This document shows positions 99-3,279 of a DNA stretch of 64,000 bases, piece after piece. Numbering within the stretch: position 1 is the stretch's first letter; each line of letters starts with the position of its first letter. Position numbers and translations under genes: made by a program. Below the pieces are notes generated by a model, which saw nothing but the letters and a program-made list of their open reading frames with translations, ran no database searches and was not told where the DNA came from. The DNA is from an uncultured Nitrospiraceae bacterium (GTDB taxonomy: Bacteria > Nitrospirota > Thermodesulfovibrionia > Thermodesulfovibrionales > Dissulfurispiraceae): positions 992,001 to 1,056,000 of the forward strand of contig CAVSHF010000003.1 in NCBI GenBank assembly GCA_963727805.1. Direction: 5' to 3'.

Positions 99-920
99 TT
101 AAGATATCTTCGCTGCCTTGGCGATCGGTGGGGTCGGGATATTCGAGCCGTGACGTTCGATGCAGTTGCTCTGAGCAGTGATACCGTAGTTTGCAGAAGA
201 TACAGTACCATTCGTTTCGTACTTGCCGTCCTTCCAGGCATTCAAAAGTTTGACAACATGATAGACCGTGCTTGCGGTGACGCGGGCACAACGGTCCTTT
301 CGTTCGGGGCTCTTAAGATCTTTGTCTGCTGCCTTCATCCATTTGCAGACCGATATGTGGCAAAAAGGAGAATCGCTGACTGTTTTAGGAAGGACAGTTT
401 TGATCCTGGGATTGCTGGGCGTGAAGATCGGCATCTGCGCATTGGCATACCAATCAAGCATTTCGCCTCCCATCAGCGCGCCATCTTCAGACCCGGCTAT
501 CCGAGGCTTATTATCATATTGGCCACTATATTGGCTCCCATAGGCGCGCCGCAGATGGTCCCCCATCCCATGATTCCACCTTCGAGAAGGAGCAAGAGTC
601 TATATGAAAAGACTTGTATGGCTCTCCAACTTTCTCTCTCAGCTGAGTGAAGACGCTGCTGATCACGGCCGCGCCGCAAAGAGTCGACACCATTCATTAT
701 GGGCAAGTGCAGCGGTTTGCGCAGGGTCAAGCTTCACATACGGCCATGGCCATTTTTCTGTCGGCCCTTCCCTGGCTTCCGCGTTAGAAAGTAAGTTCCC
801 GAGCTGATCGGCAGTCGAGCCGATAGCTAATAATCCTGCACCTGCAATGAACTTTCTTCTTGAAACCGTGTCGTTTCCGGATACCTTTTTTTTAATCCTC
901 CTTTGTATGAAATTATTCAA
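99..920 (-). pseudogene. Frameshifted split-Soret cytochrome c / C-GCAxxG-C-C family protein
   Basis: Tat-like SRRKF signal and KWPWPYVKLDP in ORF 663..920. CGAAVISSVFTQLREKVGEPYKSF continues in another frame, EGGIMGWGTICG lies in ORF 497..730, and SPFCHISV..ERKDRCARVTAS in ORF 99..566. About three 1-nt frameshifts (near 680, 595, 505); the C-terminal heme motif reads CIERH instead of CxxCH. Confidence 0.75.
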
Positions 921-983: not shown

Positions 984-2072
984 CTAGTCCTTCATTGGCT
1001 TGATGAACATGAAGTAGACCATCGTCCAGTTGCCGAGGATTATAAATATGGTCGCCACGATGCTTGATAGGGCGAGGGATGAAACGCCGGTCAACGCATG
1101 ACCTACGGTGCATCCCCCTGCAGTCGCTGCTCCAAAGCCCATAACGAGGCTGCCAAGGAAAACCCGTATGATTTCATTCGCCGGAGGGGCCTGTAATTTG
1201 AATTCGCCGAGTCCTTTGGCGCTAATGTAAGCGCCTAGTGGAATACCCAAAATATATAAAGCACTCCAGGTGCCCTTGAAAATCCCCCAAAAATTAAACA
1301 TAGGATCGAATTTGGACATACTGTCTCCCATCGTCACGGCTAGGAATGCCTCTGCCGTCGGTCCCGCCGCCGAAAGGCCTCGTGTCTGCCCTCCCCAGTA
1401 ATTTGATGCCCAGAGCGCAAAGATAAGGATCACGCCGATCATGGCGCCGGTGAGGGACCATGAATAGCCTTTCCTCGGTCCCTTGGCAAAGGGCTTCCCT
1501 TTCAGGACAATCGGAATGATGATGAGAGCGATAACGCCGATGACTGCCCATTTCATCGATAACCCGCCAAAGATATCCCACAACGCAGGGTTGAAGACGG
1601 CCTCATCGCCGCTGCCAATCGAAACTTTGTAGCTCTTCAGGAATTCCATGACTGGTTTGAGGGGACCATGATAGGTAGCGATAAGAGAAGAGGCAAAACC
1701 GAGAGTGGCCACGAGAGCGGATGTATAGCCTTCTCCCACACGGTATATTATGCCGCTACCGCAACCGCCGGCCATCACAATGCCAAGTCCGAAGACATAG
1801 CCGCCGACCATATTGGCGATAACATTGAAGGATTGCCTCCTGAGACCGAAATCACCCATAAATCCGAAGTCTTCAAGCAGATTCGCGCCAATGATTGCGA
1901 TCAAAAGTGCCAGCAGATATGACCGGAATAAGGTAAAGTCTTCGAGAAATATGATGTCTCTAAAAGCCGAATTCATGCAGTAACGACCTCTCTGAAGAAC
2001 AAAACCGAAAAGAATACCGACAAAGAGCCCACTTGCCAATACCATAAAACTTGCCTGCTGGACTTCCTCCAT
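984..2072 (-). CDS. YeeE/YedE family (thiosulfate/sulfur-compound) transporter
   Basis: Hydrophobic 362 aa; LQRGRYCMNS, GGCGSG and GGCTVGH Cys motifs typical of YeeE/YedE; AAGGAG RBS upstream. Confidence 0.9.
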   Translation of the reverse strand: MEEVQQASFMVLASGLFVGILFGFVLQRGRYCMNSAFRDIIFLEDFTLFRSYLLALLIAIIGANLLEDFGFMGDFGLRRQSFNVIANMVGGYVFGLGIVMAGGCGSGIIYRVGEGYTSALVATLGFASSLIATYHGPLKPVMEFLKSYKVSIGSGDEAVFNPALWDIFGGLSMKWAVIGVIALIIIPIVLKGKPFAKGPRKGYSWSLTGAMIGVILIFALWASNYWGGQTRGLSAAGPTAEAFLAVTMGDSMSKFDPMFNFWGIFKGTWSALYILGIPLGAYISAKGLGEFKLQAPPANEIIRVFLGSLVMGFGAATAGGCTVGHALTGVSSLALSSIVATIFIILGNWTMVYFMFIKPMKD

Positions 2073-2187
2073 AGAGCTTCTCCTTTTTCTTCAATTAATC
2101 ATTTGTGTGGCAATGCCACGACTACCGAATTATCTCCTTTCGTCCATATGACGAACGACCAAGCCGACTTTTTCAAAAAAGGAACAA

Positions 2188-2317
2188 TGGAGGGGAGCAG
2201 TGGGAATCGAACCCACCACGGCACCTTATGAGTGCGACACACTGCTTTGACGCCCGTATGTCTTTAGCCGTGACACTGGTTTTGCAGACCAGGTGAGGCG
2301 CCAACCCCGTGCCCCCC
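2188..2317 (-). tRNA. Atypical tRNA-Cys(GCA) on a tRNA-Sec-like scaffold with a 59-nt variable region (selC*-like)
   Basis: Minus strand: acceptor GGGGGGCA/TGCTCCCC, discriminator T, encoded CCA; D arm GGGGT-TGGC-GCCTC; anticodon arm CTGGT-CTGCAAA-ACCAG; T arm GTGGG-TTCGATT-CCCAC; 130 nt in total. Confidence 0.8.
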
Positions 2318-2548
2318 GGGAACAGCTCACAAAAGAGACGGCTCCCGCCTTTTACGCTATCCGTACAACGGAAACAGCAGGTTATTTGACTTGATATGGG
2401 TTCCGAACTGGAACGGCGAAACTGAAGGGTATTCATATCTTCATTCGGTTCGCCTTTTTTGATACGTCGTGGGAAGTTGTCTCGGAGAGTGTCCTATATT
2501 GAAGGCCTATGCCCATGTCTATGATAGCTTGGTGGATCATTTGCAGAT

Positions 2549-2578
2549 AATTTAGTATTGCTTCAATATATATGTCAA
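2549..2578 (-). promoter_or_regulatory. Possible sigma70 promoter upstream of the atypical tRNA and yeeE
   Basis: TTGACA-18 nt-TAAATT on the minus strand in an AT-rich intergenic stretch. Confidence 0.35.
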
Positions 2579-3279
2579 ATTGTTTTTGTGGATGGCTTAA
2601 ACGGGAGTAATAGATTTGTCGCTACAATCCAAAAACTGGCGGACGCCGAATGGCGGAGAATGCGGGCGTAACATTAAAGTTACCGGTAACCAACGGTGTC
2701 CCTGAAATATCCGATGCGTTGACTTTTTGGTAACATCAAATAAATGTTCCAGCGATGTTCCTATAATCGACAATGCACTCGACACGGTGAAGACGCTTTG
2801 TTTCAATAAGTAATCGAGAGCGGTACTGTTCGTCAATCTTTACCGAGTTCGTCTCCCTGTCATGTTTGTGAGCGTATAGATAAAAGATTCTCTCAGAGGA
2901 AAAGAACGATAGTTGAGATAATATTTTGAAAGTAATTTGCTATAATTAAACGAATAATAAGAGGTTTATGCTCCACTTTAATCTGCTAGCGTGATATCTT
3001 TCATAGCGCCAGAAGAAGACAGGGGTAGCTGTAAATATGTAACGCCTCGAAGCAGGCTAAGTTCAGTCATCTGATAAAAGGGTGCAATTGATCTCTTTTG
3101 GAAAAAACATCTTTGGCCGGAAGTCGTCTCCAACCAAGACATCTACGCTAACTTCGGGCAACTCCCTCCAAAAGTATTTATCTCGCATCACAAAAGATCG
3201 ATCTGTTGCTAACGGTGATATAATCAAGTTTCAGACCTCAAGCAAGACAACAGCGATCGTAAACAGGTGGAGATAGACC

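Follow-up and report, generated by a model that had tools for sequence, protein, structure and literature searches.

The gene at positions 2188 to 2317 of the window, the 64,000-nt stretch of DNA from an uncultured Nitrospiraceae bacterium that was analysed here, is a real gene of the Nitrospirae-type selC*/tRNA-ReC class, a known rare class of tRNAs that is thought to place cysteine at selenocysteine positions. The class itself has been described before; what sets this gene apart is the branched, enlarged variable arm, which is conserved across related bacteria. The gene probably encodes a working tRNA-ReC with an enlarged arm and would be transcribed as the leading RNA cistron of an operon for selenium shortage. 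The best reading of the arm is that of a structurally constrained add-on, which may perhaps act as a block to SerRS.

Read on the minus strand (2317 to 2188), the RNA folds at -55.1 kcal/mol with a z-score of -2.27, which was equalled by 3 of 200 shuffles, and its minimum-energy fold is the full cloverleaf (Table 1). The plus-strand reading was dropped, as its fold is no better than that of shuffles (z -0.94). An earlier note on this DNA, which gave no strand, had described a 130-nt tRNA with the shape of tRNA-Sec and Cys identity, and this description holds at these coordinates on the minus strand: the 8-bp acceptor stem, 5-bp T stem, UGGC D loop, CUGCAAA anticodon loop, U73 and CCA are all contained in the minimum-energy fold. 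The note had also pointed out that the encoded CCA is absent from the two canonical tRNAs of the window; this is so, but 36 of the genome's 47 tRNAs have CCA at their called ends, some of which may be acceptor-stem ends, so that the CCA of selC* is not special. Of the tRNA finders proposed in the note, ARAGORN calls no selC* gene in either the window or the whole genome, and the Rfam tRNA-Sec model (RF01852) reaches 46.1 bits (E 5.8e-07) and just misses its gathering score of 47. The gene shares with bacterial tRNA-Sec the 8/5 fold, and hence the long acceptor, together with the 4-nt D loop and the long variable arm of the tRNA-Sec-like cloverleaf, but differs from it by GCA in place of UCA, by U73 in place of G73 and by a D stem of 5 rather than 6 bp. 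The helices of the acceptor, D and T arms are 100% paired across the 13 closest relatives, U73 is present in 126 of 126 distinct selC*-type relatives, and the consensus of the tRNA body is identical between 32 branched-arm and 79 short-arm members.

Table 1. Features of the selC* locus in the window.
Feature	Position	Strand	Details
selC*/tRNA-ReC-type tRNA-Cys(GCA)	2188..2317	minus	130 nt, 8/5 acceptor/T fold; fold, Rfam, alignment
Acceptor stem, 5' strand	2310..2317	minus	8 bp with 2192-2199, G1:C72
D arm	2295..2308	minus	5-bp stem, 4-nt UGGC loop, tRNA-Sec-like
Anticodon arm	2276..2292	minus	5-bp stem, loop CUGCAAA, anticodon GCA at 2285-2283
Branched variable region	2217..2275	minus	59 nt
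P1 basal helix, 5' strand	2267..2272	minus	CACGGC/GCCGUG, 6 bp with 2217-2222; 32/32 relatives
Junction strand	2263..2266	minus	purine-rich NAAR, 4 nt, then invariant G
P2 hairpin	2236..2262	minus	7 + 2 bp in this gene; covarying, with variable length and sequence
Third branch (P3/J31)	2223..2235	minus	13 nt; conserved U, A, G; one covarying pair; weakly paired here
T arm	2200..2216	minus	5-bp stem, UUCGAUU loop
Discriminator and CCA	2188..2191	minus	U73, encoded CCA
yeeE	984..2072	minus	YeeE/TsuA-family sulfur/selenium transporter, 362 aa, Cys-only (C32, C104, C321)
Split-Soret cytochrome c-like gene	99..920	minus	C_GCAxxG_C_C; probably third cistron
Promoter, predicted	2549..2578	minus	sigma-70-type (TTGACA, 18 nt, TAAATT), consensus match
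LysR-type operator, predicted	2579..2613	minus	upstream CTAT half-site kept; ATAG-N7-CTAT box by the -35 degenerate
Leader frame	2173..2436	minus	87 codons, starts 119 nt upstream, reads through the tRNA

In the available part of the original description, selC* tRNA-Cys is defined as a tRNA-Sec-like species with U73 and a GCA or UCA anticodon, with Thermodesulfovibrio and Nitrospirae included, and the roughly 52 selC* sequences of the supplement, as read here, all have a variable arm that is a single hairpin and a total length below 100 nt (Mukai et al., 2017, PMC5389517). The class was later renamed tRNA-ReC and is described, in the accessible text of two papers, as a substrate of CysRS that EF-Tu ignores and that SelB brings to UGA/SECIS sites; these citing papers also relate that UGA recoding was reported for a clostridial member (PMC11415595, PMC13582414). 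At least 20 tRNA-ReC table rows, of 36 places in the supplement of the latter paper, are all short-armed, and the accessible part of the same source calls the partitioning between tRNA-Sec and tRNA-ReC unclear (PMC13582414). An exact pattern of anticodon arm and T loop, searched in 317 genomes of the window's order, gave 129 matches in 124 genomes (24 long-armed, 105 short-armed), and the reversed control pattern gave 0. In one genome of the order (G230), the stretch from anticodon to T loop is letter-identical to the selC* of Thermodesulfovibrio yellowstonii in Mukai's table. Of 25 long-arm matches in a species collection, 23 are labelled Thermodesulfovibrionales, Dissulfurispiraceae or Nitrospirota. 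The 126 distinct selC*-type genes form one series, with 87 of 90-109 nt, 35 of 118-132 nt and 4 of 141-148 nt, where the size counts are not frequencies, as all long-arm loci and part of the short-arm ones were fetched. The gene is dispensable: no copy was found in two genomes of the genus that are nearly complete, and that of a third genome is decayed.

Through this series, the window gene is linked continuously to the published Thermodesulfovibrio-type sequences, with which it shares the anticodon arm and T arm pattern, the tRNA-Sec-like body, GCA with U73, G1:C72, the order of bacteria, and a genome with selA, selB, selC, selD and canonical tRNA-Cys; the difference lies in the 59-nt branched arm and the total of 130 nt, against a single hairpin and less than 100 nt in the published members of the available supplement, a common trait rather than a defining one (PMC5389517). 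The deltaproteobacterial selC*-selB*-cysS* systems, in contrast, have an 8/4 fold with an A51a bulge, selB* downstream and a cysS* without anticodon domain, whereas the window gene has an 8/5 fold with no selB* or cysS* adjoining, in a genome with one selB and an unlinked truncated CysRS-like gene. With the tRNA-ReC of Desulfotomaculum nigrificans, as far as the accessible text describes it, the window gene shares Cys identity on a Sec scaffold, and SelB/SECIS-dependent use of UGA is predicted here; it differs by lineage and type, by an arm that is more than twice as long and branched, and in that its activity is predicted only (PMC11415595, PMC13582414). The proposal of the earlier note that this is a selC*-type tRNA-Cys with an extra RNA domain is thus supported by the match to the class, by the relatives and by the covariation in the branched arm.

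The branched set comprises 32 distinct genes from four families with arms of 46-60 nt, with two decayed copies and one unrelated arm excluded. All six pairs of P1 are kept in the 32 genes, and four of them have changes on both sides; the junction reads NAAR followed by G across the four families, with the G in 32 of 32, and the P2 run anchored at the junction has 5.4 pairs versus 2.1 in shuffles. The third branch measures 12-14 nt in the relatives, with its U, A and G positions kept in 29-31 of 32 genes and one covarying pair (C-G, U-A, A-U) in 30. Among the 13 closest genes, aligned by sequence only, 92.8% of cells pair and 15 pairs change on both sides, versus 7.9 in shuffles (0/500) and 2-4 in slid controls, including 7 of 10 pairs of P2, while the third branch is only 63% paired; these measures are inflated by kinship, and the structure was drawn from one of the 13 sequences. 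Since P1, P2 and one pair of the third branch are kept or covary among relatives, a three-way junction with a weak third helix is the supported fold of the arm. The earlier note had likewise seen a three-way junction, but closed by a 4-bp CACG/CGTG stem and bearing two hairpins. Its junction stands with a closing helix of 6 bp, and its GACATAC/GTGTGTC hairpin was right, with pair probabilities of 0.99-1.0. The GCAC/GTGC hairpin is a near-equal alternative in the window sequence (pair probabilities 0.33-0.53; -52.2 vs -54.3 kcal/mol) that only 2 of the 32 branched genes can form, and it was rejected together with the 4-bp stem. Homologs lacking the insert or its covariation, which by the note would have pointed to a recent inactivating insertion, are not what was found, as 32 relatives share the covarying branched arm; such an insertion was rejected on the covariation in P1 and P2.

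Intermediate arms of 31-36 nt consist of a basal helix, an A-rich bulge and a hairpin, and suggest stepwise growth of the branched arm. On a SelB tree of 30 genomes the branched-arm label needs 4-6 changes, a spread that on this tree is read as transfer or repeated loss; a search of viral contigs with arms of about 18-48 nt for carriage by phages gave 0 exact matches. Unrelated arm expansions are found in L055, L175 and L178-L180. L055 measures 141 nt, L178-L180 (G377, G361 and G491), from one genus of another class, measure 146-148 nt, and L177 is about 154 nt long without CCA; the arms of all these genes are long and irregular. Both L055 and L177 belong to arrays that hold further selC* copies together with a second selB. 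A subgroup (L008, L011, L017, L052-L054, L158 and L174) has a D arm that is 4 nt longer, besides the enlarged variable arm. In the literature searched, no branched or 120-150-nt bacterial tRNA arm was found described; the 2018 tRNA-ReC survey, the 2017 figures and most subscription papers lie outside that search.

The genome harbors a canonical tRNA-Cys, for which the earlier note had advised to look, and a separate 98-nt tRNA-Sec gene, as well as selA, one selB, two UGA-containing selD, three UGA-containing molybdopterin enzymes, a UGA hydrogenase and a UGA YeeE. The selB* and second cysS that the note had also suggested as companions did not materialize, as no selB* accompanies the branched arm and the second CysRS-like gene is not distributed along with it. 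Among the 50 genomes searched, branched-arm genomes have a single selB, two being found only in G163 and G175, and no SelB column tracks the branched arm in 30 proteins (of 51 full-length matches); a dedicated SelB* partner was therefore rejected. The second CysRS-like protein (406 aa, G000:C3:1748735-1749955) lacks the anticodon-binding end, lies beside nifU/nifS-like genes and presumably has changed zinc-ligand positions. It is present in 27 of 71 genomes, many short-arm genomes among them, and as a query finds no match in branched-arm genomes outside its own genus within these 71, so it does not co-occur with the branched arm and was rejected as its partner. A CysRS of 711 aa (G000:C5:204823-206958) carries an N-terminal domain fusion, which is taken here to be serine acetyltransferase (CysE)-like; open frames of at least 700 aa suggest that this CysE-like/CysRS fusion may be common in the order.

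These results bear on whether the arm could be a binding module, i.e., a natural aptamer through which a protein or a selenium metabolite switches or recruits the tRNA. Such a role would fit the unpaired junction residues that are conserved in four families, and aptamers on the V-arm sequester or recruit tRNAs in engineered systems, according to the accessible part of the report (PMC7590224). It is nevertheless unlikely, as no partner was found among the SelB and CysRS-like proteins, P2 varies freely, one member (L064) with a 27-nt arm without P2 has an intact body, unrelated expansions exist, and the conservation of the junction may reflect folding only. Equally to be treated as doubtful is the wider proposal of a 118-148-nt intron-free tRNA family in which the arm would be a protein- or selenium-sensing aptamer that gates Cys-for-Sec recoding in a LysR-controlled starvation regulon with Cys twins. 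The arm is rather read as an add-on because no dedicated SelB or CysRS goes with it and P2 is free in length. The available text on engineered aptamer-tagged and V-Spinach tRNAs (PMC7590224) describes molecules that also carry extra RNA on the variable arm, but these are artificial, whereas the arm of the window gene is a natural, conserved and branched domain.

T-N11-A is the binding signature of LysR-type regulators. The genome has both a predicted T-N11-A operator at the selC* promoter, with the box partly degenerate here, and a LysR_Se gene, which in relatives is often directly upstream of selC* (NF040786 over cut-off). The box, ATAG-N7-CTAT, was found in 62 of 123 upstream regions versus 2 of 113 coding controls and 0.8 in shuffles. 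In the motif search it abuts the TTGAC -35 element, usually about 50 nt before the tRNA and with a further CTAT upstream, while in the window's own genus a leader of about 250 nt lies between the promoter region and the tRNA. When the genome was scanned with a matrix built without its own sites, six operator-like sites scored above 12 bits, while three column-shuffled controls gave none (plus strand only). Such a site precedes each of the two selC* copies of the genome (36.8 and 21.6). The others are at G000:C3:167249 (-) before a 715-aa molybdopterin enzyme, which has only distant UGA paralogues (26-28%), C3:1233727 (+) before yedF, C3:963476 (-) before a PHP-like gene upstream of two rhodaneses, and C3:819324 (-) before a response regulator, where it may be due to chance. 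LysR_Se is the orthologue of HrsM, which according to the accessible texts represses Cys isogenes in Methanococcus when selenium is adequate (PMC11097638, PMC5322559). Compared with HrsM/LysR_Se as presented there, the window system shares LysR_Se near the locus in relatives and, for YeeE and the hydrogenase, Cys-only selenoprotein twins behind an operator, but is bacterial, and its putative regulon, for which the sign of control is inferred, adds a recoding tRNA and a transporter. No description of a selC*/LysR selenium-shortage regulon was found in the literature searched, on which the 2018 survey and the 2017 figures may bear.

The second selC* copy of the genome (L027, 121 nt, G000:C3:960042-960162), 34 kb from the window, is decayed, with a G at position 32 and a broken T loop and P1, but it shares its upstream region with the window copy and has the best operator score in the genome. 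It heads an operon for a Cys-only [NiFe] hydrogenase, of which a twin at G000:C3:1352680-1354389 is 75% identical and has a UGA at C63, the first motif's cysteine and an N-terminal selenocysteine position. A similar relationship holds for YeeE, a listed selenoprotein family in the available part of PMC13188914: a twin at G000:C5:569866-570948 has two in-frame UGAs, both followed by hairpins, and two-UGA twins are present in 11 of the 13 genomes with a cassette YeeE, the remaining genomes having a Cys second copy in one case and, in one that is 82% complete, none. All 16 twins that were examined carry their UGAs at positions aligned with C32 and C321 of the window's YeeE. Operator scores are 23.6-50.4 before 15 cassette YeeEs, whose sites are included in the matrix, and at most 6.4 before 16 UGA twins. 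No UGA twins were found in 14 DCCP, 19 YedF, 17 split-Soret and 4 CMD genomes. A Cys-twin rule for all genes downstream of selC* was therefore rejected, and the term 'Cys twin' is limited to YeeE and the hydrogenase, because none was found with UGA for these four other genes.

selC* neighborhoods are selenium gene clusters with LysR_Sec_metab, YedF, a double-cubane protein, SelB, a rhodanese, a split-Soret cytochrome and YeeE. In close relatives, the selC*-yeeE unit comes immediately after a selD-rhodanese-FeS cluster, from which it seems to have become detached here; a transposase-like gene (G000:C3:483977-484843) is located directly upstream of that cluster. The split-Soret gene of the window has a single-nucleotide frameshift within a run of T near 680, which makes it a pseudogene or reflects an assembly error. 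yeeE starts 115 nt after the CCA of selC*, and in branched loci it often follows at 20-60 nt. Among loci with enough sequence, a YeeE start within 400 nt was found in 18 of 32 branched loci, but in none of the 77 short, 8 middle and 3 longest ones. This association could be taken to mean that the tRNA-like fold acts mainly in cis, by processing or attenuation of the yeeE leader, perhaps in connection with the leader frame that continues across the tRNA. Control by a nested tRNA was proposed for selB (PMC8124441), and at 38% divergence all 7 close relatives keep the leader frame open over 40 codons, while the other frames have 2-4 stops. The probability of this frame staying open by chance is, however, about 0.01-0.04, and with 57 synonymous and 250 nonsynonymous changes it lacks synonymous bias, hence it was rejected as a conserved protein. 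An anti-Shine-Dalgarno function, in which the arm would pair with the ribosome-binding site of yeeE, is not above shuffles (1 of 18 at p<=0.05) and was dropped, since no pairing is conserved. In addition, 14 of the 32 branched loci are without YeeE, the link to the branched arm is probably one event of shared descent because the cassette YeeEs form one clade, and the anticodon, U73 and CCA are kept as in a charged tRNA. A mainly cis-acting role is thus quite unlikely.

In the preferred reading, that of a working tRNA-ReC, the LysR_Se/HrsM-family regulator would keep the selC* promoter on under selenium shortage, with the sign of control taken from HrsM, and the transcript would yield both the tRNA and the mRNA of the Cys-only YeeE as a stand-in for its selenocysteine twin. 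By analogy with other members of the class, CysRS would charge the tRNA with cysteine by means of GCA and U73, and the 13-bp acceptor/T arm would exclude EF-Tu and suit SelB. SelB may then deliver the Cys-tRNA to UGA and SECIS, so that selenoproteins are completed with cysteine; candidate UGA targets in the genome are the two SelD, the three molybdopterin enzymes, the hydrogenase and YeeE. Sequence, fold conservation, gene content and motif are established by the present analysis; charging, delivery and regulation are extrapolated from the class. The arm domain presumably points away from the L-shaped body and selection may have acted on its compact folding, not on binding to a partner. Its likeliest benefit would be to break the long regular stem that is read by SerRS, and so to keep serine, SelA and selenocysteine off the tRNA. 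In the accessible part of a study on engineered tRNAs, bulges in the V-stem can block SerRS, and large V-loop inserts allowed marginal activity only (PMC7590224), so that the 59-nt arm may also impair decoding. As most members have short arms with unbroken stems (105 of 129 matches), the class as such can do without a SerRS block. The guess of the earlier note that the role is non-ribosomal or regulatory is not the preferred one here, as the class has a reported ribosomal role, the body is equally conserved in branched and short-arm members, and no selB* or co-occurring cysS was found.

Use of the tRNA at Cys codons, as an extra isoacceptor for UGC/UGU via EF-Tu or as a carrier of serine or selenocysteine, is very unlikely. 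GCA does pair with UGC/UGU, a selC* from a deltaproteobacterium was functional with EF-Tu in Escherichia coli according to the available supplement of PMC5389517, and in Aeromonas a GCA-bearing tRNA-Sec inserts Sec at Cys codons, as stated in the accessible text of PMC11415595. However, the genome has a canonical tRNA-Cys, the gene folds as 8/5 (13 bp) and not as the 8/4 of the deltaproteobacterial member, the discriminator is invariably U73 rather than G73, and the operator is of a selenium type. That the gene is a selC* pseudogene inactivated by insertion is highly improbable: decayed copies do exist (L007 and the second copy of this genome), and the operator and last gene of the operon are damaged at the window locus, but P1 and P2 have compensatory changes over 32 sequences, the body is fully paired, and the gene scores 137.8 bits with a model whose training set includes it, within the 137-143 of its closest relatives and above the 91.8 of the decayed copy.

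Because the window gene is missed by the standard tRNA finder ARAGORN, such genes are under-annotated. If the branched tRNAs decode, the size limit of natural bacterial tRNAs, for which the largest other tRNA of this genome gives a value of about 98 nt, would move to 130-148 nt, and they would provide a natural scaffold for RNA domains on a tRNA that is compatible with both the ribosome and SelB, which is hard to achieve by engineering. The combination of the operator with pairs of Cys and Sec twins offers a testable answer to when and why tRNA-ReC is used, namely as a fallback under selenium shortage.
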